Shown: positions 12,076-52,667 of the stretch, in pieces
Numbering within the stretch: the stretch's first letter is position 1
Layout: the number at the start of each line of letters is the position of its first letter
NCBI GenBank assembly: GCA_016192685.1
Contig: JACPTS010000001.1
Coordinates: 394,628-458,627, forward strand
Source of the DNA: Candidatus Harrisonbacteria bacterium
GTDB taxonomy: Bacteria > Patescibacteriota > Minisyncoccia > UBA6257 > 02-FULL-45-10c
Length of the DNA: 64,000 nt
Reading direction: 5' to 3'
Position numbers and translations under genes: made by a program
The notes under the pieces: model-generated
The model's database searches: none
What the model was told of the DNA's origin: nothing
The model's input: only the letters and a program-made list of their open reading frames with translations

Positions 12076-13836
12076 ATGAAAATTTGCTGGTGTGACGGCT
12101 GCAAAAAAGAAGAACTGAACCGGCTTAAGAGCGAGATTAAAAAGCTTCAAGAAGAAATAAAGGAGTTGGAAGAAGCTAATCAGGACGATAAAGCTTTGAT
12201 TAGGATTTTGATGAAAAGGATAAGAAAGTTGGAAAAAGCAGTATCGGAATTGGCGGAAAGGGCGCAGCATTATAAAAATAGCGTTGCTAGGCTGTCGGAA
12301 AGGGCAAAGCGTCCGCCCTGCGGCTACGCTATTTTTGTCCGTCCGCATCCCGGCGGCGAGCCGGATGAGGTTGATGTGCTGGATGGCGGCCATCTTAAGA
12401 AGGTGGCGCTCGCCATGTCTGATATTACTGCCAAGGATTTGAAATGCGGTTGGGAAGTTTTACTGAATGCGAAAGATAATGTGGTGGAGGTGACTAAAAA
12501 TTATTGGTCGTGGGGATCGGAAGTAATTTTTAAAGAGCGTTTAAGCGAGGATATTGCTTTAGTAATGAGTGAAGTGGATAGCGTCCAGCAATGTTTTTTA
12601 AGCCCAGAATTAAAAAATGTTCAATTAAAGTCCGGCGATTCTTTATTGAATTGCGGCGGCCTGCTGGTGAAGATTCTCCCGAAAACCGAAGAGAAAGATC
12701 ATGATTTGGAAGAGGTTCCGGATTTGGACTTTTCTAAGGTTGGCGGATTAGCCAAGCAAATCGCCGAAATTGAAGAGGCGTTGGCTCCTTTTGCGGATCG
12801 CGAGGTGTATATAAAAGAAGCTAAAGGCCAGGATATGCCTCGGGGCATTTTATTGGATGGGCCTCCCGGTTGCGGCAAGACGCTTCTTGCCAGGGTTATT
12901 GCTTCTAATTTAGCCAAGCACCGCGGCCTTAAAGGTTATTTTATGGCCCTGACCAGTACCGAGCTTATCAATAAATATGTCGGAGAAACCGAAAGAAAGC
13001 TCCGCGAATTATTCAATCGGGCGAAAGAAAAATCCGGCGAAGGCAATTTGGTAGTCATTTTTATTGATGAAATTGACGCTTTGGTTCGGAGTCGGGATTT
13101 TGCCATGGATAAGGAGCCGTGGAAAGGCGATACAGTCGCGCAATTCTGCGGGCTCTTGGACGGCATTACGCCGTTGGGCGATATTATCGTTATCGGAGCG
13201 ACCAATCATAAAAATTTGATTGACCCGGCTATTTTAAGGCCCGGAAGAATGACGGTGCAGATTACGGTGCCGCGGCCGAATCGGAAAGGCGCCGAGGAGA
13301 TTTTGAGGATTTATTTGGCCCCGGATTTGTCATTTGGGCAGAAATATTTTCAAGATGATTTGTATGAGTACCTTGACCATTTTGGCAGCGGCAAGAAAGA
13401 AATTGCCGAGCTTAATAAAAATCCGGAAAAGGTGCGCGATCATTTCTTAGACATGGTCATCAAAAGAATTTTCTATAAAGGCAATCCGCTGGAAATAGTT
13501 TTGGGCGAGGGCACGGAAGATGAAGAGGTTTTAAAGATTGACAATAAAATTGAGGTTATGAATGAGCATCAGCTGCTTAAGACTTACCTCAAGGATTGGG
13601 TATCGGGCGATATGCTTAAAAATATCGTGGAAAAGGCGAAGCGCATCGCTTTTACCCGTTGGCTTCGGAAGAGGAAACAGGATCCGGCTGTCAAATATGA
13701 ATTAACTAAGAAAGATTTTTTTCTGGCTGTTGATGCCGAATATCAAAGAATTGTTTCTTCGGTGAAGGCCCCGAAACAAGCGGCGGAAAAGAAATATGAA
13801 ATAGGATTTAAAAGTAAAGAAGAGAAAAATGAATAG
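12076..13836 (+). CDS. AAA+ ATPase of the ARC/Mpa (proteasome-associated ATPase) type
   Basis: N-terminal coiled coil, OB-like inter-domain, Walker A GPPGCGKTLLAR and Walker B VIFIDEIDAL. Sits upstream of dop-pup. C-terminus ends ...EEKNE with no GQYL-like docking motif. SD AGGAG 8 nt upstream. Confidence 0.65.
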   Translation: MKICWCDGCKKEELNRLKSEIKKLQEEIKELEEANQDDKALIRILMKRIRKLEKAVSELAERAQHYKNSVARLSERAKRPPCGYAIFVRPHPGGEPDEVDVLDGGHLKKVALAMSDITAKDLKCGWEVLLNAKDNVVEVTKNYWSWGSEVIFKERLSEDIALVMSEVDSVQQCFLSPELKNVQLKSGDSLLNCGGLLVKILPKTEEKDHDLEEVPDLDFSKVGGLAKQIAEIEEALAPFADREVYIKEAKGQDMPRGILLDGPPGCGKTLLARVIASNLAKHRGLKGYFMALTSTELINKYVGETERKLRELFNRAKEKSGEGNLVVIFIDEIDALVRSRDFAMDKEPWKGDTVAQFCGLLDGITPLGDIIVIGATNHKNLIDPAILRPGRMTVQITVPRPNRKGAEEILRIYLAPDLSFGQKYFQDDLYEYLDHFGSGKKEIAELNKNPEKVRDHFLDMVIKRIFYKGNPLEIVLGEGTEDEEVLKIDNKIEVMNEHQLLKTYLKDWVSGDMLKNIVEKAKRIAFTRWLRKRKQDPAVKYELTKKDFFLAVDAEYQRIVSSVKAPKQAAEKKYEIGFKSKEEKNE

Positions 13837-13858
13837 CGCTCGTTAAGGGCGCTTTTTT
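13835..13858 (+). terminator. rho-independent terminator after ARC/Mpa gene
   Basis: AGCGCtcgttaaggGCGCT followed by a T6 run. Confidence 0.6.
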
Positions 13859-13924
13859 ATTCCCTTGTATTCTCGTTGGCGGTAGTTTAAAATAGGTTCA
13901 AGTTCTTTGAAAGAGCGGAGGGCT

Positions 13925-15388
13925 ATGGCAATTCCGAAGCTGTGCGGCATTGAAAATGAATTTGGATTTTCTGTTTTTGACGCGGCCGGTAAGCAATTAG
14001 GGAGTGATGGCTATTTGGAGGCGGCGCATCGCTTTGTGGCTTATTTTCTGGCGCACGAAAAAGCCATTCGTTACGATCCGGCGAAGGAATCTCGGCGGCG
14101 CGATACCGACGGAGACGACGAAGAAGAATCGGAAACTTTATTTGAGCGGACGCACCGGCGGCTTACTGAAAGTCTTACAACGGGAACTGACGGTTTTTTG
14201 GCAAATGGCGCGCGGTTTTATTTGGACGCGCACCATCCGGAATATTCCACGCCGGAATGCTTGACCCCGCTGGAATTAGTTGCTCATGATAAAGCGAGCG
14301 AGCTGGTGATGCTGGAGGCGGCGCATTTATTTTCGCGTCAGCTGGCCGGCAATCGGCATCGTATATTCGTCCATAAAAATAACAGCGATGGCAATGGCCA
14401 CAGTTACGGTTGCCATTTAAATGTCCTTTTAAAGCGGGAATTGGTAAGCGGCAATTTTAAATATCTGGTAAAGCAGTATATTCCGTTTCAAATCAGCAGG
14501 ATTATTCTGATTGGGGGCGGGAAGCTGGGGGCGGAGAATAATCGGCCCGTCTGCCAATTTCAAATTTCCCAGCGAGCGGATTTTTTTGAAAAGTTGGTTA
14601 GCCAGAATACGGTTGAAAATCGCCCGATTTTCAATACCCGAGACGAGCCGCACGCGGACCCTAAAAAATATTTTCGCCTTCACGATATTTCCACCGATTC
14701 TTTGGTGTGCGAACAGGCCATTTTTCTTAAAGCGGCGCTTAGCCAAGTTGTGCTGGCGATGATTGAAGACGGATTTTTAAAAGACAATGTTTTGCCTAAA
14801 AATCCGGCAGAGGCGATGGCGCGCGTATCCCGCGACCTTTCGTTTAAAGACGGACTTCTGTTGGAAACCGGCAAAAAAATGACCGGCTTAGAAATATTGC
14901 GCCATTATCTGACGCAAAGTAAAAAATATCTGGCTGAACATCCCATGAGCGATCAGCATATTTTAGCGGTTGACCAGGCGCTGGGACTGCTTAATCAATT
15001 GGAAGAAAATCCGCTGGCAACTGCCGGAAAATTAGATTGGACTACCGCTTGGAAAATCGCCGAAAGCCGGCCAGCTCAAGCCAAGCAAAACCTTTTGGCT
15101 TTTAGGGAAATTTACCCCCGCGGATACTACCGGGAATTGGTTAAAAGAGGAAAAATATGCCGTCTGGTAAGCGATGAAGAGATTGCGCGGGCTAAGTTAA
15201 GCCCGTCAATTAATACCAGGGCTTATTTAAGAAGCGAGATGATTAAAAAATTCGGTTTAACGATACGCGATATGAGCTGGTCTCTTTTCTCGGTAAAAAT
15301 CGGCCAACGGCTAAAAGTCCTGGAGGCGGATAACCCCCTTCTTGCAAAAGCGGAAGCGGATATGCTATTATCAAATTTAGAAATTTGA
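13925..15388 (+). CDS. dop: Pup ligase/deamidase family enzyme (Dop-like by position, immediately upstream of pup)
   Basis: N-terminal CGIENEFGF (the GIETEYG motif), NGARFYLDAHHPEYSTPEC and GCHLN blocks characteristic of PafA/Dop carboxylate-amine ligases. Start placed at the ATG preceded by GGAGGG (the ORF track starts 18 nt earlier). Confidence 0.75.
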   Translation: MAIPKLCGIENEFGFSVFDAAGKQLGSDGYLEAAHRFVAYFLAHEKAIRYDPAKESRRRDTDGDDEEESETLFERTHRRLTESLTTGTDGFLANGARFYLDAHHPEYSTPECLTPLELVAHDKASELVMLEAAHLFSRQLAGNRHRIFVHKNNSDGNGHSYGCHLNVLLKRELVSGNFKYLVKQYIPFQISRIILIGGGKLGAENNRPVCQFQISQRADFFEKLVSQNTVENRPIFNTRDEPHADPKKYFRLHDISTDSLVCEQAIFLKAALSQVVLAMIEDGFLKDNVLPKNPAEAMARVSRDLSFKDGLLLETGKKMTGLEILRHYLTQSKKYLAEHPMSDQHILAVDQALGLLNQLEENPLATAGKLDWTTAWKIAESRPAQAKQNLLAFREIYPRGYYRELVKRGKICRLVSDEEIARAKLSPSINTRAYLRSEMIKKFGLTIRDMSWSLFSVKIGQRLKVLEADNPLLAKAEADMLLSNLEI

Positions 15389-15409
15389 TTTTACTGGAAA
15401 AGGAAAAAT

Positions 15410-15622
15410 ATGGTTCCGGAAGAGGAGCGGAAGAAAAAGAAAGATAAGAAAAAGAAGAAACCAGGCGATCCGGAAGAGGAAGAAGAGGAGAAGGAATCCG
15501 ACGAGGATGAAGAGTTAAAAAAAGACCTTGAAAGCGATGATATTGGAGACATTTTGGACGATTTGAAGAGCACTCAACCGGAGCAAATTCCCGATGAATT
15601 CCGCCAAAAGAGCGGACAATAA
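15410..15622 (+). CDS. pup: prokaryotic ubiquitin-like protein Pup
   Basis: 70-aa disordered acidic protein with C-terminus DIGDILDDL...DEFRQKSGQ, matching the Pup C-terminal helix and ...QKGGQ tail. Located between dop-like and pafA-like genes. Confidence 0.8.
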   Translation: MVPEEERKKKKDKKKKKPGDPEEEEEEKESDEDEELKKDLESDDIGDILDDLKSTQPEQIPDEFRQKSGQ

Positions 15623-15626
15623 TTAG

Positions 15627-15658
15627 AGCGAGCCGCCTTTTTTAAGGGCGGTTTTTTG
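15627..15658 (+). terminator. rho-independent terminator after pup
   Basis: GC hairpin GCCGCC...GGCGG followed by a T-run. Confidence 0.5.
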
Positions 15659-15723
15659 TTGTCAAAAAAACCGCCAGAGAGTATAGTATAAACAGCTTAT
15701 TTAAAATAATGCAATAAACAGCC

Positions 15724-16866
15724 ATGCCAGACCGGCTCTGCGGAAAAGAACAAGAGTACGGCATGAGAATTTTACCCACAAAGAAATTCATCGCTTCTCT
15801 GCCTCAGGGGATTTTACTCCCCCCGGAACATCTGGAATATTACTTAAAAGAAGATAGTTTTACTGATTGGAGACGCGGTTTTGCGCAAGCAATTATCAGC
15901 AATATTATGAATTCTAAAATTCCAAATTTTTCTAATGGCAGCGATCGAATTTGGCTTGCTAATGGGTCGCTGATTTATATTGACCTTAAATGTATTGTAG
16001 AAACGGCAACCGCCGAATGCCGCGCCGGATCCCTGGACGGATTATTGCAGGAAAAAGCCTCTGAGCTGATTCTTAATGAAGCCGCGCAATCGGTCGTGGC
16101 GCAGCGCGGCATTGAATCGCTTACTTTGTATAAAAATAACGTCGGCCCTTCCGGCTTGGGGGAAGACAGATTTAACGAAGTAACGTATGGGAGCCATCAT
16201 AATTATTCTTATCTTGAGTCCAAACAGGTGGCTGTATTCCAGGTATTGAAGAGTTTTCTTCCGGTTTCTATTATTTTTAGCGGCAATGGGCACGTGTACA
16301 AGCATAGAAATAATATAATGTACGCGCTTTCTCAAAGGGCGTCTCACATTACGCTGGCGCAGTCGGGAGCGACGTTGGATAATCGAGCTATCGTGACTAC
16401 GCGGGATGAATCGCTTATGGACAGGTCAACCGGCTTAAGCCGCCTGCATTTAATTTCGCGGGATGCCACGCGCTGTGAATTTCAGACGTGGCTGGTGGAT
16501 ACAATCACTCATTTAGTATTAAGACTGGCGGAAGAGGGGTGGAAATTGCCTTTAAATTTATCGCTTAGCGGCCCAGTCACGGAAATGCACGCCATTAATT
16601 TATCACTGGAGGTTAATTTAGATTATAAAGCGGCCTGCTGGCCGTTTGGGGTTAATAGGATAGATATTTTTGAGTATAACAAGATTTTTTTGGATGCCGC
16701 TAAACAGCTTAGTCCGCTCTCCGAACCAGAAAAACTCTGCCTCCAAGAATGGGAAAGAGTTTTAGAGCTCCTGAAAGCCAGAGCTTTTGACCAGCTGGTG
16801 GGAGAATTAGATTGGGTAACTAAATGGTGGCTGCTTAAGAAAAAAATGAGCAAATATTTTAGATAA
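15724..16866 (+). CDS. PafA/Dop-family paralog, C-terminally truncated (ends just after the conserved ELDWVTKWW block)
   Basis: LCGKEQEYG N-terminal motif, NGSLIYIDL..ETATAEC and TYGSHHNYSYL blocks. The final ~250 nt contain two tracts identical to the next paralog. A degraded C-terminal-domain remnant continues in the +1 frame after the stop. Confidence 0.65.
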   Translation: MPDRLCGKEQEYGMRILPTKKFIASLPQGILLPPEHLEYYLKEDSFTDWRRGFAQAIISNIMNSKIPNFSNGSDRIWLANGSLIYIDLKCIVETATAECRAGSLDGLLQEKASELILNEAAQSVVAQRGIESLTLYKNNVGPSGLGEDRFNEVTYGSHHNYSYLESKQVAVFQVLKSFLPVSIIFSGNGHVYKHRNNIMYALSQRASHITLAQSGATLDNRAIVTTRDESLMDRSTGLSRLHLISRDATRCEFQTWLVDTITHLVLRLAEEGWKLPLNLSLSGPVTEMHAINLSLEVNLDYKAACWPFGVNRIDIFEYNKIFLDAAKQLSPLSEPEKLCLQEWERVLELLKARAFDQLVGELDWVTKWWLLKKKMSKYFR

Positions 16867-17109
16867 AATTCTATATATCAATTGGGACGCGGTGTACTTG
16901 CAAGGCAATCCGCCTAAACATTACCCGACCGGAGAGACTGGCAATCCTTTCGCCGCCGTCAGTTCTTCGTTGGAAAATTTGTATAAAGAATTAGGATTAG
17001 CGGCCGATTAAAAAATTTATCCTCGTTAGGCGAGGATTTTTTAATTGATAAAATTAATAATTTGCCTTATATTAAAATGAGCTTCTTAAAAAAATAACAG
17101 AGAAAGAAA

Positions 17110-18201
17110 ATGCAGAAACGTCTTTGCGGCCGCGAGCAAGAGTTTGGAGCTAAGATTATCCTTTCTTCCGGGGGCCTCAGAAAATTAAAACTAGGTACGC
17201 GAGCAGATGTTATCTGTAAAATAATAAGTTTAATTGCCGATGTTGTTCCGGCAGTAACTTTTAACGACAGCAGCAGTGATTATTGGCTTTGCAACGGCTC
17301 AAGGGTTTATTTGGATATGGATTCGGTAGAAACTTCAACTGCCGAGCATCTTGCCGGTTCTTTTGACGGGATAGCTCAGGAGAAAGCTCTGGAGTTAATT
17401 CTTAATAAGGCGGTTCAATCAATAATACGGTCAAAAATAGGGTTAGAGTCTGTTGCCCTTTACAAGAATAATGTTTGGCTTCAAAAAGAAGATGGTCGTT
17501 TTCAGGAGGAGACTTACGGAAGCCACCACAATTACTCTTATTTAACTAAAAAACGGGAGAGGGTTTTCGGGTTAATGAAAAATTTTATTCCCGCCGCCCT
17601 GCCATTAACCGGGAATGGGCATGCGCTTGGCTTAAGGTCGGGACAGTTCGTTTATTGTTTGTCCCAAAGGGCAAGGCACATCATTTTAGTCAAGCATGAT
17701 GATACTTCTTCCGTGCGGCCGATTATCAATCTTCGCGATGAGCCTTTAATGAATGAATCAACCGGCTTAAGCCGCCTGCATTTAATTTCGCGGGATGCCA
17801 CGCGCTGTGAATTTCAGACGTGGCTGGTGGATACAATCACTCATTTAGTATTAAGACTGGCGGAAGAGGGGTGGCAGTTGCGGCCAAGTTTGGTTTTGGA
17901 AAGGCCGCTGGCGGAGCTGCATCATCTGAATTTTAAATTTGATTTGAATTACGAATTAAAGACTGCCTCCTGTGCCATGGATGTCGTTGATTACAATTAT
18001 CTTTTTTTGCGTGCCGCGGAGAAATTAAAGCCTCTCTCCGAACCAGAAAAACTCTGCCTCCAAGAATGGGAAAGAGTTTTAGAGCTCCTGAAAGCCAGAG
18101 CTTTTGACCAGCTGGTGGGAGAATTAGATTGGGTAACTAAATGGTGGCTGCTTAAGAAAAAAATGAGCAAATATGCTTCTGGAAGCAGAAGGAAAGATTA
18201 A
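17110..18201 (+). CDS. PafA/Dop-family paralog, N-terminal catalytic part (frameshifted gene)
   Basis: LCGREQEFG, NGSRVYLDMDSVETSTAEH and TYGSHHNYSYL. Nucleotides 17760-17880 and 18030-18170 are identical to paralog 15724..16866. Confidence 0.65.
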   Translation: MQKRLCGREQEFGAKIILSSGGLRKLKLGTRADVICKIISLIADVVPAVTFNDSSSDYWLCNGSRVYLDMDSVETSTAEHLAGSFDGIAQEKALELILNKAVQSIIRSKIGLESVALYKNNVWLQKEDGRFQEETYGSHHNYSYLTKKRERVFGLMKNFIPAALPLTGNGHALGLRSGQFVYCLSQRARHIILVKHDDTSSVRPIINLRDEPLMNESTGLSRLHLISRDATRCEFQTWLVDTITHLVLRLAEEGWQLRPSLVLERPLAELHHLNFKFDLNYELKTASCAMDVVDYNYLFLRAAEKLKPLSEPEKLCLQEWERVLELLKARAFDQLVGELDWVTKWWLLKKKMSKYASGSRRKD

Positions 18202-18472
18202 GCATCTTGTCTCCAAAGAAGACATCAAAAAAGCCATTCTCACTCCGCCGGAGACAAGGGCTAAGAGCCGGGGGAAGTTTATAAAAGCTTGTTTTAAAAA
18301 TCCCGGGTTGGCAAAACGGGTTAGGGAATTTAATTGGGGCAGCGCGGCAATCTACGATAAAATTATTTATTTCGGAGAAATAAATAATCCTTTTTCCGTT
18401 TCCACGGTTGTGGAGAATGGCTGGCCTTTTTTAAGGCCCGGGATAGATTACAGACCGTTACGGCATTTTTAA
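18173..18472 (+). CDS. C-terminal domain of the PafA/Dop paralog, encoded in the +1 frame (split or frameshifted)
   Basis: LLEAEGKIKHLVSKEDIKKAILTPPETRA aligns with the PafA/Dop C-terminal domain (...RLVSDEEIARA...TRA in the upstream Dop-like gene). Overlaps the end of 17110..18201 by 29 nt. Confidence 0.55.
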   Translation: MLLEAEGKIKHLVSKEDIKKAILTPPETRAKSRGKFIKACFKNPGLAKRVREFNWGSAAIYDKIIYFGEINNPFSVSTVVENGWPFLRPGIDYRPLRHF

Positions 18473-18512
18473 TCTTTGGCTAAAAATCCTAAAATCTATT
18501 ATATTTCTCGTA

Positions 18513-18541
18513 AAAACCTGCTGTATTCAGCAGGTTTTTTA
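18513..18541 (+). terminator. rho-independent terminator
   Basis: AAACCTGCTGtattCAGCAGGTTTTTT. Confidence 0.7.
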
Positions 18542-18557: not shown

Positions 18558-18644
18558 TGGTGCCTAGGGAGGGATTTGAACCCTCATGACCTTGCGATCG
18601 CAGGTTTTTGAAACCTGTGCGTATACCAGTTCCGCCACCTAGGC
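18558..18644 (-). tRNA. tRNA-Leu (anticodon CAA), encoded with CCA
   Basis: Reverse complement folds as a type II tRNA: acceptor GCCTAGG/CCTAGGC, anticodon arm CAGGT-TTCAAAA-ACCTG, long variable arm, T-arm GAGGGTTCAAATCCCTC. Confidence 0.8.
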
Positions 18645-21581: not shown

Positions 21582-23616
21582 TAGGTTTTTCTTCTAAATT
21601 TTCTTTTGGCTGGTCTTTTTCCGGCTCAGGATTTAGCGGATTGGCCCAAGAGGCGTAATCGCATTTCGGGTATCGGTTGCAGCCCCAAAAAATTTTACCG
21701 CGCACCTTGCCGCGAGAAACTCTTTTTTCAATGATATCTCCGGGGTTGTCCAGCGTAGCGGGATCTGGCGAAGCCAGACATTTCGGGCATTGCATGCCTA
21801 TTTTTTTCGGCTCTTCTTTTAAGCTTTTGGTATTTCGGCATTCCGGAAATCCCGAACAAGCCAGGAATTTTCCGAATCGGCTGAATTTTACCACCATTGG
21901 TTTTCCGCATTTATCGCAATTTATCCCGGTTGCCTCTTTTCCGATTAATTCGGTTTTAGTCACTTCTTTATATTTTTTCTCCAAATTTTTAGAGAAAGGA
22001 GTATAAAATGCGCCGATTAAATCCCGCCAATTTTCATTTCCTTCCGCTACCTCATCCAGGCTGGATTCCATTTTGGCGGTAAAATCTATATCCACGATTT
22101 CCGGGAAATTTTCCGTCAGTACTTTATTAACTAAAGTTCCCATTTCCGTGGGTAAAAATTTTCCCTGCTGTTTTTCCACGTAGTTCCGCGTTTGAATTAC
22201 CGAAATCGTCGGCGCGTAAGTGGATGGCCGGCCAATGCCGTATTCTTCAAGCGTTTTAATCAGGCTGGCTTCGGTATAGCGGGGCGGCGGTTCGGTAAAA
22301 TGCTGAGCCGGAACTAACTCTTTAACGGTTAATTTTTCCGCAGCCGTTAATTCGGGCAGTTGGTTCTCTTCAAATTTTTGCTTCCAGATTTTCAGAAAAC
22401 CGTCAAATTTTAAAACATTGCCGTTGGCCCGGAAAGTATATTGGCCGGATTCAATATCGGCTTGAGTGGCATAAAATTCCGCCTGAGGCATTTGAGAAGC
22501 CAAAAAGCGCGACCAGATTAGCTCATAAAGTTTTAATTCACTTTGGTCGTCAATATTTTTCGCGGTTGGTTTCTCGGACGGATCCGTCGGCCGGATAGCT
22601 TCATGCGCTTCTTGGGCTAAGCGGGATTTAGTGGTAAAAGTTCGCGGCGCTTGGCTGGCGTATTGGACGCCCAATTCTTTTTCCAGCCAAATTTTAGCGG
22701 CGGCCAGCGATTCTTTGGAGAGGTTCACGGAATCAGTCCGCATATAGGTGATTAATCCTTTTTCGTAGAGGCGCTGGGCCATCAGCATGGTTTTTTTCGC
22801 GGAATAGCCGAGTTTTTTCGCGGCAGTTTGCTGAAGGGTGCTGGTGGTAAAAGGCGGCAAGGGGTTTTTCTTAACCTCCTTTTTATCAATTTTAGAAACC
22901 GTAAATTCGGAATTTTTTATTTGCGATAAAATTTCGTTTATCGCCCCTTGGCTTTTTAATTCCAGTTTTTCAATAGTTTTTCCATTAATTTTAATGAGCG
23001 AGGCTTCCAAGGCTTCCCCGGTTTCTTTTTGCAAAGTTGCTTTCAGGGTCCAATATTCTTCCGGTTTAAATTTTTTAATTTCCTCTTCGCGTTCAACGAT
23101 TAATCTTACCGTCACCGATTGCACTCGGCCGGCCGAAAGGCCGCTGGCCACTTTTTTCCATAAAAATGGCGATAGTTTATAGCCGACCAGCCGATCTAAA
23201 ATCCGCCGTCCCTGCTGGGCGTTAACAAGGCTTTCGTTAATTTGGCGGGGGTTTTTAAGCGCGGTTTCAATGGCATTTTTGGTAATTTCATGGAAAACAA
23301 TCCGTTCGGTTTTTTCCGGCGGCAAAGCCAGAGCTTTGGTTAAATGCCAGGCAATGGCTTCTCCTTCCCGGTCTTCGTCAGTAGCTAAGACAACCCTTTC
23401 TGATTTTTGAGCGGTTTTTTTAAGGCCGTTTACCAGTTTTTTGGCTTTAGTGGGAATAACATATTGCGGCTCAAAATTTTTTTCAACTTCAATTCCGAGT
23501 TTGCTTTTGGGCAAATCTCTGATATGGCCGTAAGATGACTCAACTTTATAGCCATTTTTAATAAATTGAGAAATGGTTTTAGCTTTGGTCGGAGATTCTA
23601 CGATAACAAGTTTCAT
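21550..23616 (-). CDS. topA: DNA topoisomerase I
   Basis: Toprim N-terminus (KLVIVESPTKAKTI), topo IA core and C-terminal Cys4 zinc-ribbon repeats. Confidence 0.95.
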   Translation of the reverse strand: MKLVIVESPTKAKTISQFIKNGYKVESSYGHIRDLPKSKLGIEVEKNFEPQYVIPTKAKKLVNGLKKTAQKSERVVLATDEDREGEAIAWHLTKALALPPEKTERIVFHEITKNAIETALKNPRQINESLVNAQQGRRILDRLVGYKLSPFLWKKVASGLSAGRVQSVTVRLIVEREEEIKKFKPEEYWTLKATLQKETGEALEASLIKINGKTIEKLELKSQGAINEILSQIKNSEFTVSKIDKKEVKKNPLPPFTTSTLQQTAAKKLGYSAKKTMLMAQRLYEKGLITYMRTDSVNLSKESLAAAKIWLEKELGVQYASQAPRTFTTKSRLAQEAHEAIRPTDPSEKPTAKNIDDQSELKLYELIWSRFLASQMPQAEFYATQADIESGQYTFRANGNVLKFDGFLKIWKQKFEENQLPELTAAEKLTVKELVPAQHFTEPPPRYTEASLIKTLEEYGIGRPSTYAPTISVIQTRNYVEKQQGKFLPTEMGTLVNKVLTENFPEIVDIDFTAKMESSLDEVAEGNENWRDLIGAFYTPFSKNLEKKYKEVTKTELIGKEATGINCDKCGKPMVVKFSRFGKFLACSGFPECRNTKSLKEEPKKIGMQCPKCLASPDPATLDNPGDIIEKRVSRGKVRGKIFWGCNRYPKCDYASWANPLNPEPEKDQPKENLEEKPRRTGYEPKSV

Positions 23617-24629
23617 TTTATAAAGTATTTGCCGTTAGATTCTTTAATTATACCCTTAATAACTAGCATCGCTAAATTTTTGTTTAGCGCGGAAAGGCTA
23701 AGGGCAGTATCCCCTTGTAATTGTTCAATAGATAAGTTTTCTTTTTTCAGGGCGTGGAGAATATTTTCCTCCAAGGAATTTTCGCTGGCGGCAGGTTTAT
23801 CCCCTTCGGTTTTCGCGGAAATTCCGAAATAATTAAGAAGGTCTTCCGGTTCGGTTACCGGGGTGGCGCCGGCCTTGATTAAGGCATTGGAGCCTTTGTA
23901 ATTTTGAGCTTTAACATTGCCCGGAACAACAAAGACTTCCCGGTTTTGCTCTAAAGCGAATTTGGCGGTGGCTAACGCCCCGGATTTTTCCGGCGCTTCA
24001 ATAATCAGCACGCCGTCAGCTAAGCCGCTAATCAGGCGATTTCTGATTAGGAAATTTTGCGGATGGTATTCTTGGTTTAGGGGATATTCGGAAATGATGG
24101 CGCCGCCGGATTCCAGGATATTTTTCGCCAACCCTTCATTTTGTTTTGGATAAAGATTATCTAAAGCAGTTCCTAAAACCGCGATGGTTTTGCCATTGGC
24201 ATCCAGCGCGCCGCGGTGCCCCGATTCATCAATGCCCAGCGCTAATCCGCTGATAATGGTTAATCCCGTCCGAGCCAGGCCTTGGGCAAAGGAACGCGCC
24301 AGTTCTTTGCCGAGCGGAGTGGCGTTTCTGGTTCCCACAATGGCCAAAGCCGGCTGCCGGTAGCTGATGTCGCCTAGGACGTAAATTCCAAAAGGCGGCC
24401 AAGCTATTTCTTTCAGGAGAGGCGGGAAAGTTTTATCTTCTTTAAGAATTAATCGGATATTCAAATTTTCCAGCCGCTGCCATTCCTGGTCAGCATCTTT
24501 TAATTTATTTTTTTCATGCTGGCAGGCGGATTCCCAAGTTAAAAATTTCTCTTTTGCCTTTTTTAGCTTGGGGTAATCGCTTTGGTATAAAAGATTCAGG
24601 GCATTATAGTATTTAGTTTCTTTATCCAT
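23613..24629 (-). CDS. dprA: DNA processing protein DprA (Smf)
   Basis: Rossmann-like DprA core (GLALGIDESGHRGALD...AVLGTALDNLYP). Start moved to an internal Met (MDKETKYY...). The longer ORF-track N-terminus would overlap the divergent promoter region. Confidence 0.8.
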   Translation of the reverse strand: MDKETKYYNALNLLYQSDYPKLKKAKEKFLTWESACQHEKNKLKDADQEWQRLENLNIRLILKEDKTFPPLLKEIAWPPFGIYVLGDISYRQPALAIVGTRNATPLGKELARSFAQGLARTGLTIISGLALGIDESGHRGALDANGKTIAVLGTALDNLYPKQNEGLAKNILESGGAIISEYPLNQEYHPQNFLIRNRLISGLADGVLIIEAPEKSGALATAKFALEQNREVFVVPGNVKAQNYKGSNALIKAGATPVTEPEDLLNYFGISAKTEGDKPAASENSLEENILHALKKENLSIEQLQGDTALSLSALNKNLAMLVIKGIIKESNGKYFIK

Positions 24630-24651
24630 ATTGGTATAATATAGTAGAAGT

Positions 24652-25167
24652 ATGGAATTTAGACAATGGCTTTTAAAAAATGGAGGCATCGCTTTAGCGG
24701 TTATTTTATTTTTGGCTATTCTCCTTTTGCTGTTGGGCCGGGATATTTCCAGCCGAACGGCCATGATTGGAAAACAGCGGCAGGATTTATTGCTCCGTTC
24801 CCAGGCGATAAATTCTCTGGCCCTTCTTCGTTCGGAGGGAGAAAAATCAGAAAACATTTTTAAGGCGGTGAAGGATTTTTTGCCGACCAGCGACCAATTG
24901 ATTAGTTTTCCTAATACATTGGAAAATTTGGCCAAAAACAACCAACTGGGATTTGGCTTCGCCTTTAATGCCGAGGTGCCGGCCAGCGAATCCGAGCCGG
25001 GAGTTAATACTTTTACTTTAACTTCCAGCGGCGCTTACAATAATTTTCTTAATTTTTTGAAAGCGGTGGAAAAAGGGAAATATTATGCCGGCTTTGATTT
25101 TATTGAGCTGAACAAAAAAGACAAGGATTTTCAAATTTTAATGAAAGGCAAGGTTTTTTCTCAATAA
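24652..25167 (+). CDS. hypothetical single-pass membrane protein
   Basis: 171-aa ORF with an N-terminal TM segment and no recognisable domain. Confidence 0.45.
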   Translation: MEFRQWLLKNGGIALAVILFLAILLLLLGRDISSRTAMIGKQRQDLLLRSQAINSLALLRSEGEKSENIFKAVKDFLPTSDQLISFPNTLENLAKNNQLGFGFAFNAEVPASESEPGVNTFTLTSSGAYNNFLNFLKAVEKGKYYAGFDFIELNKKDKDFQILMKGKVFSQ

Positions 25168-30002: not shown

Positions 30003-30653
30003 ATGGGAAAACCGCAGAATAAAGTAAAAATTAAATGGACATCAGAGTTTGCTTATGCAATTGGCCTTATAACAACTGACGGATCTTTATCTAAAGATGG
30101 GAGGCACATAGATCTTACTTCTAATGATCGTGAGCAACTAGAGAATTTTTTATTATGCCTGAAAAGTAAAAATAAAATTGGATTTAAACATAAAAATCAC
30201 GGTAGCGCTTTGAGGATTCAACTTGGAGATGTAAATTTTTATAAATTCTTAGGCGGGATAGGACTTATGCCAAATAAGACAAAAATAATCCAAGATGTTA
30301 AAGTGCCAAAAAAATACTTCTTTGATTTTTTGCGGGGACATTTTGATGGCGATGGGAGTTTTTATTCTTATTGGGATCCGCGCTGGAAATCAAGTTATAT
30401 GTTTTACACGGTTTTTATTTCCGCAAGTAAAAATCATATTCAATGGATTAGAGAAAGCATCAAAAGGATTTTACAAATAAAAGGTCATATTACTAAAAGC
30501 ATTAATAATTCGGTATATCAGTTAAAATATGCCAAAGCTGAATCGTTGAAATTATTGCCTAAATTGTATTATAGTAAAGACGTTATCTGTTTATCTCGGA
30601 AGCGTATAAAAATAGAAAAAGCTTTGGCAATAATAAATCAAAAGATAAAATAA
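30003..30653 (+). mobile_element. free-standing double-motif LAGLIDADG homing endonuclease gene
   Basis: Two LAGLIDADG motifs (FAYAIGLITTDGSL and FLRGHFDGDGSF). It sits in a very AT-rich patch between rplS and a tRNA, with its own extended -10 promoter. Confidence 0.75.
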
Positions 30654-30654
30654 T

Positions 30655-30740
30655 GCGCGGGTGATGAAATGGTATACATGCCAGCTTGAGGTGCTGGTGT
30701 CCGCAAGGACGTGGAGGTTCGACTCCTCTCCCGCGCACCA
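30655..30740 (+). tRNA. tRNA-Leu (anticodon GAG), encoded with CCA
   Basis: Type II tRNA with acceptor GCGCGGG/CCCGCGC, anticodon arm CCAGC-TTGAGGT-GCTGG, a long variable arm and T-loop TTCGACT. Confidence 0.8.
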
Positions 30741-31304: not shown

Positions 31305-31450
31305 AGAAAATTTTTTAATAATATTCGTAATTATTTGATATAAGAAACGGCAGAGATGCTGGTTTTTATTGGACTTGACAGATTGGCATAAATTTGCTAT
31401 ATTACAATGAAGCTGAAAGTTGTACATTTCTATTAGAAAAGGAGGAAGAG

Positions 31451-32233
31451 ATGAGGGGAAAACCAGCAGTGGTCACCGTTACGATGCACTATCTTGGTGG
31501 TGACTCTCCGTATCTTAAAGCGAAACTCAACAGGGAGATCAGTGAACAGGAATACAATGCCCTATTTCGAGGGTTGACCTCTAAGGGCGCGGAGAAGAGT
31601 GTCTACTACGATCAAACTGATGATACTGGCATCTACGTCGCCAAGAGTGATAACGGAACGTGGGGCGAGGCAAAGTCATATCTTGTCAAAAGCCTGAAAA
31701 AGGTTTTTGGCGGGGCGACTAGCATCACCATCATCGAGCCTCAGTGGAAACCGGTGGCTGGTCAGAAAGCCACGATTCTCACCGGCTGGAACTGGGGCGG
31801 CTTCAAAGTGAAGTTCGCCAAAAAAATATCCAAGGAGCAATGCAGTGCCTTGAGTGAAGAGATCGCCCCCGAGGGTCCAGTCGAAAACGGCATAACCGAA
31901 GGCGAAGTAAAGCGCACTGGCATAGAGTTCAGTATCGAAGATGCCAAGCTGGAAGATGTTGTCAAGTGTCTGAAAGTGGTGCTAAAGAAAATCCTTGGCC
32001 AGAACATCAAGATCGTGCATAAGCATGAGGCGCGAAAGCTGAGGAAATATTCGGTTCCCTGCATGGACTGCAAGAAACTACACCGCGGACAAGATGAACT
32101 CTGTGACAGTTGCAGAGAGGAAGACGAGGGCTACCAATCAGTCATACGTGAGGAAGCAGCTTTGGATCCTACGGGTCCTGCTGCCTACATTATCTCGGGT
32201 GGCCACTCGGAACTACGTCGGGGGTGGAGCTGA
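31451..32233 (+). CDS. hypothetical protein with C-terminal zinc-ribbon (GC-rich, likely horizontally acquired)
   Basis: Perfect SD AAGGAGG 7 nt upstream of ATG (MRGKPAVV...). Compositionally GC-rich relative to flanks. CMDCKK...CDSC near the C-terminus. Confidence 0.55.
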   Translation: MRGKPAVVTVTMHYLGGDSPYLKAKLNREISEQEYNALFRGLTSKGAEKSVYYDQTDDTGIYVAKSDNGTWGEAKSYLVKSLKKVFGGATSITIIEPQWKPVAGQKATILTGWNWGGFKVKFAKKISKEQCSALSEEIAPEGPVENGITEGEVKRTGIEFSIEDAKLEDVVKCLKVVLKKILGQNIKIVHKHEARKLRKYSVPCMDCKKLHRGQDELCDSCREEDEGYQSVIREEAALDPTGPAAYIISGGHSELRRGWS

Positions 32234-32736: not shown

Positions 32737-33456
32737 CTAAAAACCGTTTTTTGAAAATTCGTTCAGCGCTTTTTGTTGCGCGTCCTCAAGATGAATGGAC
32801 GGCCGCTTTGCTTTGATGATGGCGAGGGCTTCGTCAACGCTTTTGCCCTTTTTAATAAGGTAGGCGGCCACTAAAGTTGGCGCGCGGCCGTGGCCGTTTT
32901 TGCAGTGGATGTAAATTTTCTTTTTCATATTCACGAATTTTTCTAAAGTTGAAGCGCCAAAATCCAACTGCTCTTTGGTGGGGGCGGAGTGGTCTTTGAT
33001 GGGAATCCAGGTGTAAAATTGAACCCCAAAGGGCGCGTCAATCCGATTTTCTTCCAGAGATATGTCCGCTTCAATGTTTTCTTTCTTTAATTGTTCATCA
33101 AAATGGGTCTTACAACACTGATTCGTTCCGATATAAATGCCGTCGGTAATATAGTTAAAATCCAGTTGTCCTTTCGCCGGAGAATGGCCCAGCGCCGGTT
33201 TTTCTCCCGAAGCCCATTTCGTCAGTTCTTCATAAGAAGTTTCGCCGCAAATAAATTTTCCGCTTTCGGTGTTAATGAAAAAGGGGACGCCGCCGCAAAG
33301 TTCTTTGTCATACTCCCGCATCTTTTTTAAATTTTCTTCATTATGCCAAACCTCGTATTTTTCAATATCAATGCCGGTCTCTTTTTTGAGGCGCGGAAAA
33401 AACTCCGCCATTTTCAAGCAATGCGGGCATTCTTGCCCGTAAAATTCTATAAGCAT
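32737..33456 (-). CDS. fusion protein: N-terminal thioredoxin/glutaredoxin-like domain (CPHC) plus C-terminal dual-specificity/tyrosine phosphatase (HCX5R)
   Basis: FYGQECPHCLKM redox motif at the N-terminus. IYIHCKNGHGRAPTLVAAYLI P-loop at the C-terminus. Confidence 0.7.
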   Translation of the reverse strand: MLIEFYGQECPHCLKMAEFFPRLKKETGIDIEKYEVWHNEENLKKMREYDKELCGGVPFFINTESGKFICGETSYEELTKWASGEKPALGHSPAKGQLDFNYITDGIYIGTNQCCKTHFDEQLKKENIEADISLEENRIDAPFGVQFYTWIPIKDHSAPTKEQLDFGASTLEKFVNMKKKIYIHCKNGHGRAPTLVAAYLIKKGKSVDEALAIIKAKRPSIHLEDAQQKALNEFSKNGF

Positions 33457-33461
33457 ATATT

Positions 33462-33890
33462 TTACTCCACGATAATCGTTCCCGTGTCGCCGGGATTTAG
33501 ATGGTTGTGATATTTCCAGGTGCCGGCAATATCAAATTTAAACGGCCAAGAATCGCCTGGCTGAATTCCTTTGCAGGCATCAAAGGCGCTGCTTATACAG
33601 CCGCCGGTTGCGGGATATAACGTATGCGTCGGATGAATCGCCGAAGCGGTCCACATTGTTTTTGAACTTTCATTTTTAAAAGTAACCGTTCCCCCCTTTT
33701 TTATTGTTAACGCGGATGGCGAAAATCCAGAGTCGGTGTAAGTTACCGTATTAGTTAATGGTTGAGCGGTCGGCTGTTGGCTTGGCAGTTGAGAAACTGG
33801 CGGCGCGGGTTGATAGGCGCTCCTTAACAAGAAGTAACCGCCCGCAGCGATAATCGCTACGGCGACAATAGTAATAATAGTTTTGTTCAT
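33462..33890 (-). CDS. exported cupredoxin-like domain protein (type-1 copper site apparently incomplete)
   Basis: N-terminal TM/signal anchor. C-terminal GTWKYHNHLNPGDTGTIIV resembles the plastocyanin/azurin C-terminal strand but lacks the Cys of the C..H..M motif. Confidence 0.4.
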   Translation of the reverse strand: MNKTIITIVAVAIIAAGGYFLLRSAYQPAPPVSQLPSQQPTAQPLTNTVTYTDSGFSPSALTIKKGGTVTFKNESSKTMWTASAIHPTHTLYPATGGCISSAFDACKGIQPGDSWPFKFDIAGTWKYHNHLNPGDTGTIIVE

Positions 33891-34246
33891 TGATTTATTT
33901 TTTGCGGCAAGGAATCAATCATCAGCGCCAAGGCCGCGACCAAAAGTCCGATATCCCGTACTGTTATATCAGTAATGCCAGCAACCATAAGAACAATAAT
34001 AAGATGGCTTGCTCCGACGAGAGCGGCCAACCAGGTTAAAACATCAATCAACAAGAAAAAACCGACAGTAATATCTAAAATGGCTACCCCAATCATTGTT
34101 TGAGAAACGGGAATTGGTAAAAGTGAAGCCGCCCAAGTTTGAATATAGCCGCCCCAAGCCTCCGGATTTTTGAAAATCAAAACGCCAATCCAAAGAAAAG
34201 TTATGGCCAGTCCGACTCTTAAAATATGGAATGAAGTTTTTTTCAT
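33887..34246 (-). CDS. DoxX-like membrane protein
   Basis: 119-aa, 3-4 TM helix protein in an operon with VKOR. 4-nt overlap with the downstream gene. Confidence 0.45.
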   Translation of the reverse strand: MKKTSFHILRVGLAITFLWIGVLIFKNPEAWGGYIQTWAASLLPIPVSQTMIGVAILDITVGFFLLIDVLTWLAALVGASHLIIVLMVAGITDITVRDIGLLVAALALMIDSLPQKINQ

Positions 34247-34247
34247 A

Positions 34248-34658
34248 TCAAATCACTGTGCTTACCAATATTATAATTCCCATCAGCCAAATAGTAAAAG
34301 CCGACATCAGACACCAAAAACACCAGGCGTGAATGACGCGCCATTGAAGGTAAGTCAGAAAAAAAGATACAAGCGAAGCAACGGCCACTAAAATTTTTAG
34401 AGCGGAATTCCACATAAACATCGGCTCAACCCCAATCACCAGAAACGCGGCAATCAATGAAATAATAATGTAAGACAAAAGCCCCAAAATATCGTTGGGA
34501 ATAAGAAACATTTTGTTGTATTTGCTGGTCAAAACAGTTGCGCAACCGCCGCCAATCGGGCAAATCGGTTTTTCGGAAGCAATTCTCTTGCGGATAAGAT
34601 AAACGGTTTCACTGATGCCGATGGCCGAAAGCGTAAAAAGTAAAGCCAAGGAAGTCAT
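34248..34658 (-). CDS. vitamin K epoxide reductase (VKOR) family protein
   Basis: Loop cysteine pair CPIGGGCATVLTSKY and active-site CXXC (AWCFWCL) in a 4-TM protein. Confidence 0.7.
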   Translation of the reverse strand: MTSLALLFTLSAIGISETVYLIRKRIASEKPICPIGGGCATVLTSKYNKMFLIPNDILGLLSYIIISLIAAFLVIGVEPMFMWNSALKILVAVASLVSFFLTYLQWRVIHAWCFWCLMSAFTIWLMGIIILVSTVI

Positions 34659-42249: not shown

Positions 42250-42915
42250 TCAATAGTTGATGGCTGTTCGGCTGCGGAAACGGTTGATTTCCGGATTATC
42301 CAGGAACCACCGGATTGCTGTTTCTGTTTCTTGAATAAGGGAAACTATTTCTTCGGCCCTGGATTTTTTATTCCCGCGGAATAAATTTCTTATTTTTTTG
42401 ATAAACGGCGGATAAATTGTTTGGGAATATCTTTCATTAAAAATCTCCTTCCGTTCTTTTAAGAATCCTTTTTGGATAACGGATTTTAGAGTTTCTCCGG
42501 CTACCGCGTCCACGATCATTTTTTCACCTCTTAAAATTTGAAGATCGGCCGGATCGCCGGCGGTTTTGGTAAGATTAAAAAGAGTTACTTCTATCCGATA
42601 GTTTAGAGTTTTTATGCCAAAGAGTTTTTCATTTTCCGAAGCGGTTTCGCTGCGCGCGATGGAAAGCCAAACAGCAGAATCTAATTTTCCCAGCGGCAGA
42701 ATGGCATTCAGATAATCTCCCGGCACTTTGTAGATATTAAAGAGAGCGGTTTCTTTCGGGCGAAAGCAATAAACATCCCGGTGTTTAAAAAGATTTTCCG
42801 GAATTTTGGCAAAGAATTGGAAAATACCCTCATCAATATCCGCTTCCATTTTTTCGGATAATTTTTCAAGGTAGCTAAGGATGGGGTCGGGGTTTTCCAT
42901 GCCGTGGGCGGCCAC
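42250..42915 (-). CDS. hypothetical protein
   Basis: 221-aa ORF with no recognisable motif. Confidence 0.45.
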   Translation of the reverse strand: MAAHGMENPDPILSYLEKLSEKMEADIDEGIFQFFAKIPENLFKHRDVYCFRPKETALFNIYKVPGDYLNAILPLGKLDSAVWLSIARSETASENEKLFGIKTLNYRIEVTLFNLTKTAGDPADLQILRGEKMIVDAVAGETLKSVIQKGFLKERKEIFNERYSQTIYPPFIKKIRNLFRGNKKSRAEEIVSLIQETETAIRWFLDNPEINRFRSRTAINY

Positions 42916-42957: not shown

Positions 42958-47133
<4,176 letters not shown>

Positions 47134-52127: not shown

Positions 52128-52667
52128 CTAATCAATTTTATCCTTAAAAAACTCCAATGTCGATTTTACAGTGCTACCATCGGATTTGGTTAAAACCGAT
52201 TCCACTTTTCTAAAAACTTCAGCCGGAGGTTGATCTTTTTTATCAATTCTTATTTCTCCGGTTTCGCCAAAAATTAAATGAACTTTTTGTCCATCGCTCT
52301 GTTTATCGCCAATCAGTAAGTGTTGTTCATTGCCTTGCGTTCTTGATTCAACCCAAAGTTTTTCATCTTCGAGACGGTTTATAATTTTTTTCTCGGTTAT
52401 ATATTGCTCAAAGAAATCTATGTATGGTTTTATCCAACTTTCACCGCCCATTGGGAAACCGCTAGTGTCGGACCATAAAGTTCTCGGCTTGCTGGGAAGT
52501 TTAAATTTCCGATAGCGTAGAGATAACAAGCCATCGCCTTTTAGGTTCTGGTCTAAAAATTTCTCAACTTGGTCTTTAGTTTCAGTAAGCTCCGTAGATA
52601 AGAGTAAATTCTCGGCGATGGCTTGAGATTTCGATTTTATCAATTTTATGATTTCTTCTTCGTTCAT
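52128..52667 (-). CDS. hypothetical protein (cargo of the IR-flanked cassette)
   Basis: 179-aa ORF, no recognisable domain. Confidence 0.5.
   Translation of the reverse strand: MNEEEIIKLIKSKSQAIAENLLLSTELTETKDQVEKFLDQNLKGDGLLSLRYRKFKLPSKPRTLWSDTSGFPMGGESWIKPYIDFFEQYITEKKIINRLEDEKLWVESRTQGNEQHLLIGDKQSDGQKVHLIFGETGEIRIDKKDQPPAEVFRKVESVLTKSDGSTVKSTLEFFKDKID

Follow-up and report, generated by a model that had tools for sequence, protein, structure and literature searches.

Pupylation is treated as a trait of Actinobacteria (and Nitrospira) that is built on the 20S proteasome and a single ligase, PafA. Pupylation loci without a proteasome are known in some Actinobacteria, where Corynebacterium glutamicum and Micrococcus luteus have the order arc-dop-pup-pafA, and in C. 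glutamicum pupylation together with the ATPase ARC frees iron from ferritin without degradation (PMC8223512). Here we describe a Pup-type locus in a 64,000-nucleotide stretch of the genome of a Candidatus Harrisonbacteria bacterium (assembly GCA_016192685.1, contig JACPTS010000001.1, positions 394,628 to 458,627 of the forward strand), a member of the candidate phyla radiation (CPR). We refer to the whole stretch as the window and number positions from its first nucleotide. On balance, the locus is probably a chromosomal, vertically inherited Pup-type tagging operon of a narrow Harrisonbacteria/Paceibacteria clade that works without an adjacent 20S proteasome. Its closest precedent is the proteasome-less locus of C. 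glutamicum, from which it stands apart by two ligase-family paralogs that make up a new clade, by a tag missed by the hidden Markov models (HMMs) for Pup, and by its CPR host.

Like the loci of C. glutamicum and M. luteus, this locus combines an ARC-type ATPase, Dop, Pup and ligase-type enzymes with no prcBA, and by analogy its activity would be expected to be ATPase-driven unfolding or remodelling rather than 20S degradation. It differs from them in having two ligase-family paralogs, which form a separate long-branch clade with ~29% identity to PafA, where those loci have one PafA; in the end of its HMM-evading tag, which is QKSGQ rather than GGQ or GGE; and in lying in the ~0.6-Mb genome of a CPR host. 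With canonical Pup-proteasome loci (mpa-dop-pup-prcB-prcA ... pafA in Mycobacterium tuberculosis; dop-pup-prcB-prcA-pafA, with a Pup ending YVQKGGE, in the Nitrospiria reference locus L022) it shares the ATPase-dop-pup order and the Dop-loop, and its tag shares with canonical Pup an acidic helix segment (DDIGDILDDL here, DDLLDEIDDVL there) and a C-terminal Gln/Glu. It differs from them in that there is no prcB or prcA in the locus, that the first ligase paralog stands at the prcBA position, and that the ATPase has no GQYL motif.

Pup homologues named UBact were reportedly described in 2017 from Gram-negative bacteria and candidate phyla, Parcubacteria among them; their tails are said to be of an R-x-G-[EQ] type instead of GG[EQ], and their loci to carry proteasome subunits and a single PafA. 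The tails found here ([FY]RQ[KR]xG[QE]) look similar to that type, and the tag had no match among the NCBIfam models. Planctomycetes have single-copy PafA/Dop-like proteins that served as an outgroup, being ~29-31% identical to PafA and Dop and lying outside both clades (PMC7947786). By their published description, these proteins resemble the paralogs reported here in being Pup_ligase members outside the PafA and Dop clades, and differ in that they are single copy and partially align with the Dop-loop, whereas the paralogs are duplicated, loop-less and located beside a bona fide Dop. In the open-access literature, we found no link of Patescibacteria with pupylation, nor of Parcubacteria with "prokaryotic ubiquitin-like protein," and "candidate phyla radiation" and "pupylation" appear together in one paper only, with neither term present in its searchable first 300,000 characters.

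A compact locus with Dop, a Pup-type tag and an Mpa/ARC-like ATPase

Positions 12076-18472 of the window hold six consecutive plus-strand open reading frames (ORFs), the last two of which overlap (ORF listing of the window; Table 1). An earlier reading made from the letters of this DNA and its ORF translations (the sequence-only reading) had described them as five consecutive plus-strand genes that form a complete pupylation module in a CPR-like genome. Strand and order are borne out, but the last gene consists of two ORFs, the second in the +1 frame; similarly, all component types are present, but the two ligase-like paralogs (p1 and p2) are both interrupted in the assembly, probably artefactually. 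The CPR host is confirmed: an NCBI protein with 100% identity to p1 comes from a metagenome-assembled genome (MAG) of Candidatus Harrisonbacteria, in which it lies on a 608,392-bp contig and is annotated as "MAG: proteasome accessory factor PafA2 family protein."

The Pup ligase/deamidase family is defined by a GhExE ATP-binding motif and a catalytic Asp in N-G-x-x-x-Y-x-D, and positions that discriminate Dop from PafA include an insertion after the catalytic Asp and the residues after HPEY (Hecht et al., Table 1, PMC7947786). The product of the second gene matches PF03136 (Pup_ligase) with 357.4 bits (gathering threshold, 25) and scores 316.5 bits against the Dop model TIGR03688, compared with 258.3 against the PafA model. 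When aligned to solved structures, it scores 243.9 bits with Dop and 151.3 with PafA, and the alignment runs end to end and includes the Dop-loop. This Dop-specific insertion, which the sequence-only reading had suggested checking for, is present ahead of the NGAR strand at residues ~50-85 (RYDPAKESRRRDTDGDDEEESETLFERTHRRLTE), where it aligns with the loop of Acidothermus cellulolyticus Dop (4b0r). The motif at the catalytic Asp is of the Dop type (YLD-AH-HPEYSTPE), with no residue inserted after the Asp, and the protein's motifs read NGARFYLD..HPEYSTPE, GCHLNV and GIENE. In a neighbor-joining (NJ) tree, a CPR Dop clade (200/200 bootstrap replicates) joins the reference Dop proteins; the clade has ~40 members with 49-92% identity, and the next sequences are actinobacterial Dop proteins at ~39%. 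Given the higher scores for Dop than for PafA, the aligned Dop-loop, the Dop-type motif and the tree placement, the second gene is assigned as a Dop orthologue, in agreement with the Dop-like enzyme of the earlier reading.

A small ORF (60-84 aa) lies directly downstream of dop in 8/8 loci, namely, the window and the seven related CPR loci described below. In the window it encodes 70 residues that comprise a Lys run, a Glu run, the segment DDIGDILDDL and the C-terminal sequence DEFRQKSGQ. The proteins in other loci end in EFRQKSGE, EYRQKSGE, QYRQKPGQ, KYRQKGGQ (L021), VPQQGGE (L018) and FPQKDCE, and two further relatives end in FRQRPGE and FRQKEGQ, so that a penultimate Gly and a terminal Gln or Glu are kept in 9/10 members seen. 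The window protein itself ends in Ser-Gly-Gln and thus lacks the canonical C-terminal Gly-Gly-Gln/Glu. Gln is the terminal residue in the window and L005, and Glu in L008, L010, L018 and L019, a variation that parallels, by analogy, the Q/E dimorphism of actinobacterial Pup; the terminal Gln of the window and L005 would make deamidation by Dop necessary.

We compared the tag with M. tuberculosis Pup, the sequence of which was checked against PDB entries 7px9 and 3m9d. The last 28 residues align ungapped and in register with 10 identities (BLOSUM62 score, 45; z = 5.2), a similarity equaled by 0/5000 composition-preserving shuffles, and the KYRQKGGQ end of L021 is nearly the same as the YVQKGGQ tail of M. 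tuberculosis Pup. An hhalign comparison of the tag clade with two Pup sequences gave an E value of 7e-5 and a probability of 63% in an end-anchored alignment that covers the last 20 columns only. A six-frame listing of the window and the seven loci contains 624 ORFs with a minimum length of 70 aa, and of these only the tag ORFs have the pattern Q[KQ].G[QE]$. On the strength of its position, size, composition, C terminus and register-exact similarity to a verified Pup, we accept the 70-aa protein as a divergent Pup-type tag on sequence grounds.

The sequence-only reading had already called this protein Pup. Its end, its position and its Pup similarity uphold that call, although no Pfam, NCBIfam or PDB profile identified it as Pup: a PDB profile search with four of the small-ORF orthologues found no Pup chain, and a word-indexed search of 5.8 billion proteins with the tag found no match. 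Profile searches, which that reading had suggested as a check, thus place the three enzymes in PF03136 and the tag in no Pup model. Genuine tag genes can thus go unnoticed by the standard HMMs for Pup, and pupylation is probably more widespread than present counts show.

Could the ORF instead encode a chance or unrelated low-complexity peptide? The missing HMM match and the strongly biased composition would allow this, and a spurious database match (see below) shows that composition can mislead. Yet position, length and C-terminal motif are conserved in 8/8 loci, whose Dop proteins range from 49 to 92% identity, the canonical ends ...YRQKGGQ or ...QQGGE occur in some relatives, and the similarity to Pup is register exact, which makes a peptide unrelated to Pup hardly credible.

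Two further observations concern the tag. A 130-bit phmmer match, in 27 stretches, to a 1954-aa repetitive protein (P0241) is a low-complexity artefact. The N-terminal half of the tag (window 15428-15510) contains ~13 Lys residues followed by the Glu run, where M. tuberculosis Pup is Gly/Asp rich; judging from sequence, tag chains could be built on these lysines, or they could serve in self-modification.

The ATPase matches PF00004 in a Pfam search, and among NCBIfam models it scores highest with TIGR03689 ("proteasome ATPase"; 307.7 bits), well ahead of PAN (169.6 bits). Its alignment to M. tuberculosis Mpa (7px9_A) pairs residues 13-418 of the ATPase with residues 25-457 of Mpa and spans the coiled coil, OB region and AAA module; PF17758 (OB_N) scores 21.5 bits, just below the cut-off of 23.4, with a confident precomputed match in the L019 orthologue. 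The Walker A motif reads GPPGCGKT and the pore loop KYVG. These features identify the protein as Mpa/ARC-like, as the sequence-only reading had it, with coiled coil and OB-like interdomain. That reading had also pointed out that a GQYL-like tail is missing, and indeed the window ATPase ends in ...KSKEEKNE (...YEIGFKSKEEKNE and ...KKYEIGFKSKEEKNE). Across the eight orthologues, a conserved [ILT]GF (IGF in the window) is followed by 0-15 variable residues, and a terminal GQYL- or HbYX-type docking motif was found in 0/8.

The start of the ATPase, MKICWCDGC, contains a Cys-rich CWCDGC (window 12085-12102, residues 4-9) that is common to the window, L005 and L008 and absent from L010 and L018 to L021. 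Judging by its residues, this motif, which precedes the coiled coil, could form a small redox or metal-binding site.

Proteasome genes in the window and related loci

With PrcB and PrcA of the Nitrospiria locus as queries, tblastn and phmmer (--max) returned noise only (E of 0.67 or higher) in the window and the seven related loci, and PF00227 had no match among the 40 window ORFs or the called genes of the relatives. The earlier statement that the cluster contains no proteasome genes therefore stands for all eight loci.

An ordinary Pup-proteasome system whose prcB and prcA, perhaps with a docking adaptor, lie elsewhere in the genome would leave the locus merely rearranged. This is conceivable insofar as the searches covered 64 kb of a 608-kb contig and in Actinobacteria several genes often separate prcBA from pafA and mpa (PMC8223512). 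In the eight CPR loci, however, the compact order is kept with no 20S gene within ~10 kb, whereas prcBA sits between pup and pafA in the Nitrospiria locus. The GQYL C-terminal motif docks Mpa to the 20S proteasome (PMC8223512), and every one of the eight ATPase orthologues has only its short variable tail after the conserved GF in that place. We regard a dispersed proteasome as very improbable.

Two PafA-leaning paralogs form a distinct clade of the Pup_ligase family

Both p1 and p2 are members of the Pup_ligase family, with PF03136 scores of 171.5 and 156 bits, respectively, and 27.1 bits for the C-terminal ORF of p2 (threshold, 25). They are nearly balanced between the PafA model TIGR03686 and the Dop model (121.3 versus 119.9 bits for p1; 111.8 versus 115.2 bits for p2). 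A profile of full-length paralog orthologues retrieved ~35 family members before the score dropped from 540 to 219 bits, and among the matches listed after the drop, every named protein is a "Pup--protein ligase" or "proteasome accessory factor A." In the NJ tree the paralogs are monophyletic (200/200) on a long branch, and the unrooted split that groups the paralogs and PafA against Dop has 74% bootstrap support.

The motifs place the paralogs closer to PafA in several respects and set them apart in others. All three enzymes begin with a G-x-E-x-E-[YF]-G motif, as the sequence-only reading had noted; p1 has GKEQE and YID, and p2 has GREQE and YLD. The same reading had attributed the NGARxYxD...HPEYSTPE and GxHxNY blocks to all three, which is incorrect in both cases: only the Dop-like protein has the former, the equivalent blocks of the paralogs being NGSLIYIDLKCIVETATAE and NGSRVYLDMDSVETSTAE, and only the paralogs have the latter (GSHHNY, where the Dop-like protein has GCHLNV). 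PafA-like traits of the paralogs are the lack of a Dop-loop, an alpha-loop His (SQRAsHI; position of Mycobacterium smegmatis His174) and an A-x-A-E signature, with ..E-T-A-T-A-E or ..E-T-S-T-A-E at the HPE equivalent in agreement with the PafA-type Ala/Thr/Ala that follows it. GxExE, the catalytic Asp, HxN, SQR and R..RDE are retained in both window paralogs. Neither has lost any residue that is invariant across the family alignment. The residue inserted after the catalytic Asp in PafA (M. smegmatis Val58) is present in p1 (D-LKC-IVE) and absent from p2 (D-MD-SVE), and one copy with and one without this insertion occur in 6/6 loci in which both copies are known. An AlphaFold2 model of a full-length p1 orthologue (P0122, 84% identical to the window copy) has a predicted local distance difference test (pLDDT) score of 93 and superposes about equally on Dop and PafA structures (TM score, 0.77-0.79). 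Judged by sequence, p1 and p2 are PafA-leaning members of the Pup_ligase family in a distinct clade; the earlier description of two PafA-like paralogs therefore holds as far as family membership and the next-best matches of the profile go, but neither is a plain PafA.

Several of these features would also fit paralogs that are not both Pup ligases, one of them being a pseudo-enzyme or regulatory partner in a heteromer, a second depupylase or trans-pupylase, or an enzyme that ligates the tag to a non-protein amine. The clade is distinct and all paralogs share systematic changes at the active site (HPE to [LIVF]xE, GCHEN to GSHHN and DEPHA to DExLM). Every two-copy locus pairs a paralog that has the PafA-type insertion with one that, like Dop, is without it; gene conversion has homogenised the C-terminal two-thirds but left the N-terminal catalytic parts distinct; some p2 copies (L018 and L021) have no NTRDEP; and a Foldseek comparison marginally favors Dop. 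In view of the active-site changes, ligase chemistry is an assumption for the paralogs. Set against this, both window paralogs keep the family-invariant residues and neither has a Dop-loop, and tagging requires a ligase for which the locus offers no other candidate. That the two are not both Pup ligases seems decidedly unlikely.

The second paralogs of L018 and L021 that lack the NTRDEP motif read RPLIDYKNEDRA and RPMGYFKDLVIS; one copy may thus be catalytically degenerate in some lineages.

Frame breaks in the paralog genes

Reading of p1 stops early, at position 359 of the 441 of the Pfam profile. Compared with L005, the locus with 92% Dop identity and a p1 of 501 aa, ~220 nt are missing from p1 at 16857/16858 and ~86 nt from p2 at 18174/18175. 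Both breaks lie directly after repeat B, exactly 141 nt into an exact inter-paralog repeat, and in a relative, the MEGAHIT k141 contig L006 breaks off 141 nt into this repeat as well. Apart from their ends, Logan contigs match the window with 100% identity; L001 to L004 end at 16455, 30 nt into repeat A, and in at least 12 samples the contigs have their start at 18253. With k = 31, a start at 18253 indicates a branch at 18283, which requires a second copy of the 30-mer 18253-18282; no such copy is present in the window. Position 18282 is the exact end of homology between p2 and the p1 of L005. The out-of-frame tail of p1 (16859-17008) has a ratio of nonsynonymous to synonymous substitution rates (dN/dS) of 0.23 relative to L005, compared with 0.20 for Dop, and the paralogs of the relatives are all intact (475-522 aa). 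An exact 31-mer from the p1 tail was absent from metagenome contigs of the Joint Genome Institute (JGI).

An assembly error at the inter-paralog repeat is quite likely to have caused the frame breaks. Real recent deletions are the less likely option but keep an appreciable share, because the right breakpoints do not fit a k-mer overlap join. With assembly errors as the most likely cause of the breaks, both ligase paralogs are probably full length in this organism, as they are in its relatives.

If the 220-nt and 86-nt gaps were real, the system would be decaying in this organism, with the ligase genes inactivated or split and the ATPase, Dop and tag left behind. The breaks are, after all, present in the deposited sequence, the 380-aa product is in NCBI, and the 99-aa C-terminal ORF has its own ATG, so that a split gene is conceivable; the misfit of the right breakpoints points the same way. 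Decay would, however, require two independent deletions with the same left breakpoint 141 nt into an exact repeat, and would have to be reconciled with Logan assemblies from at least 12 samples that branch at 18283 and need a repeat copy absent from the window, with purifying selection on the out-of-frame tail of p1 and with intact paralogs in all relatives. We consider it unlikely.

Programmed +1 frameshifting at 18167-18200 in p2 was considered and rejected: at this place the genes of the relatives have 29 additional codons in a single frame, and p1 is broken at the same repeat nucleotide with a different downstream sequence.

Distribution, synteny and paralog evolution

Seven related CPR loci share the order rpoB-rpoC-S6-SSB-S18-PAP2-AAA-dop-tag-ligase-ligase-parB, except that L021 has different upstream genes and L019 reaches only as far as the tag. 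Among the seven are a Harrisonbacteria MAG (GCA_016214655.1), "Candidatus Paceibacter sp." DYGE01, GCA_030700025.1 and four metagenome contigs. The paralog signature was found in 2/185,579 GTDB species representatives. The Pup module is thus a rare, vertically conserved trait of a narrow clade and not a mobile island. A defence island was likewise rejected; PADLOC gave generic AAA matches only, and the locus lies between rpoBC/S6/SSB/S18 and parB in the relatives.

A tree of the full-length paralogs does not separate p1 and p2 into reciprocally monophyletic groups, which was traced to gene conversion in the C-terminal two-thirds. When the tree is built from the N-terminal 240 alignment columns, the p1/p2 split across loci emerges, with 48% bootstrap only, and this split suggests, from sequence, that the ligase duplication predates the clade. 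Identical inter-paralog tracts amount to 641 nt in L008 (12447-13087 = 13987-14627) and 117 plus 141 nt in the window, and none were found in L010 and L020. The C-terminal two-thirds of the paralogs have therefore undergone concerted evolution in some lineages, while the N-terminal catalytic parts are distinct throughout.

Proposed tagging cycle and its weighing

For a Pup-type tagging operon working without an adjacent 20S proteasome, we propose a cycle whose step order is inferred from the actinobacterial pathway. Dop would deamidate the C-terminal Gln of the tag to Glu, a step that would be superfluous in relatives whose tag already ends in Glu. One or both of the PafA-derived paralogs would then phosphorylate the gamma-carboxylate of this Glu with ATP and ligate the tag to target lysines. 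The Mpa/ARC-like hexamer would capture the tag via its N-terminal coiled coil and thread or unfold the tagged protein, with remodelling or disassembly (compare ferritin in Corynebacterium) or hand-over to another protease as the outcome, and Dop would also remove the tag. An outcome other than 20S degradation is probable because the ATPase has no docking motif and no 20S gene is nearby. By analogy with the corynebacterial case, proteins are probably tagged for something other than classical proteasomal degradation.

A number of results weigh against this reading. The negative result for 20S genes covers the 64-kb window of a 608-kb contig, ~10% of the genome, and a distal prcAB pair may lie outside it. 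None of the enzymes reaches the equivalog cut-off of its NCBIfam model: the ATPase has 307.7 of the 504.75 bits for TIGR03689, the Dop-like protein is below the 492.3 bits of TIGR03688, and p1 and p2 are below the 551.3 bits of TIGR03686. No Pup or UBact HMM in Pfam and NCBIfam recognises the tag at an E value of 10 or less, and a phmmer search with it over 1.84 billion representatives yielded only two true relatives. The paralogs are nearly equidistant from PafA (~29% identity) and Dop (27%), all of them carry the active-site substitutions given above, and some p2 copies are without the RDE motif. For the P0122 model, Foldseek ranks Dop structures slightly above PafA, and the alpha-loop is predicted as a strand (210-213) and a coil (214-220) rather than as the PafA helix. 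Finally, the right-hand ends of both gaps do not fit a simple k-mer overlap join.

A stronger version holds that this is proteasome-free pupylation with two obligatory PafA-derived enzymes of a third family clade, used for ARC-driven remodelling rather than degradation. We put this forward tentatively, as somewhat doubtful. In it, the paralogs may be two ligases of different specificity or a heteromeric ligase, and, if true, it would break the "single Pup ligase" rule.

The ligase-family paralogs stand side by side in every relative seen with both, beside an unfoldase without a docking tail. If functional, the locus would be a minimal natural system for Pup tagging without a proteasome and a natural experiment on the diversification of PafA/Dop-type enzymes, and its divergent tag/ligase pairs would possibly be orthogonal to PUP-IT proximity labelling. 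Overall, the component assignments of the sequence-only reading and its picture of a locus without 20S genes have held up, while the motif details were inaccurate and the intactness of the last two genes was overstated.

Features and surroundings of the locus

The coordinates of the locus are collected in Table 1. The longest dop ORF has a TTG start at 13907 (493 aa), while the 487-aa ATG form is the version called in public assemblies; an exact protein look-up matched the 487-aa ATG form and found no record for the 493-aa TTG-start form or for the 380-aa p1 product.

Table 1. Features of the Pup-type locus, in window positions
Feature	Positions	Strand	Remarks
Mpa/ARC-like AAA+ unfoldase	12076-13836	+	586 aa; coiled coil, OB-like interdomain, one AAA module
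Terminator-like hairpin 3' of the ATPase gene	13835-13853	+	consensus match only
Dop orthologue (putative depupylase/deamidase)	13925-15388	+	487 aa from ATG; acidic Dop-loop
Pup-like tag	15410-15622	+	70 aa, ends DEFRQKSGQ
Terminator-like hairpin 3' of the tag gene	15630-15654	+	consensus match only
Promoter-like site ahead of p1	15659-15687	+	10/12 consensus matches
PafA-like paralog 1 (p1)	15724-17011	+	ORF 15724-16866 (380 aa); C-terminal tail out of frame, 16859-17011
Terminator-like hairpin past the original p1 end	17019-17037	+	consensus match only
Promoter-like site ahead of p2	17045-17073	+	10/12 consensus matches
PafA-like paralog 2 (p2)	17110-18472	+	ORF 17110-18201 (363 aa), then +1-frame ORF 18173-18472 (99 aa, C-terminal domain)
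Terminator-like hairpin 3' of the p2 gene, at the module end	18512-18539	+	consensus match only
Exact inter-paralog repeat A, 117 nt	16426-16542 = 17758-17874	no strand	sequence identity
Exact inter-paralog repeat B, 141 nt	16717-16857 = 18034-18174	no strand	sequence identity

The host is a groundwater bacterium with a genome of ~0.6 Mb, of which the five-gene Pup module makes up ~1% of the DNA. Other genes of the window are typical CPR housekeeping genes (rpoBC, S6, SSB, S18, ParB, RelA/SpoT, TopA, DprA, tRNA synthetases and PilM/PilO), together with homing endonucleases. A tRNA-Leu(caa) gene (18558-18644, minus strand) lies between p2 and parB on the opposite strand. For seven ORFs (179-282 aa), a Pfam search yielded no family at an E value of 0.001 or less (521-1288, 31394-32233, 42250-42915, 46285-47133, 52128-52667, 55059-55628 and 62138-62683). 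The DprA ORF (23613-24941, minus strand) has 442 aa from a TTG, compared with 336-340 aa in relatives, and its start is probably over-called because the Pfam domain begins at residue 157. The two homing-endonuclease-type ORFs are at 30003-30653 and 52675-53349 (minus strand); one is LAGLIDADG-like and directly precedes tRNA-Leu(gag) at 30655-30740, and the other is an HNH type with homing-endonuclease repeats. A 239-aa dual-specificity phosphatase-like protein (DSPc; polymorphic-toxin-type DSP-PTPase models match too) is encoded at 32737-33456 on the minus strand, where it forms a small cluster with ORFs of VKOR and cupredoxin-like type (33462-34658) on that strand.

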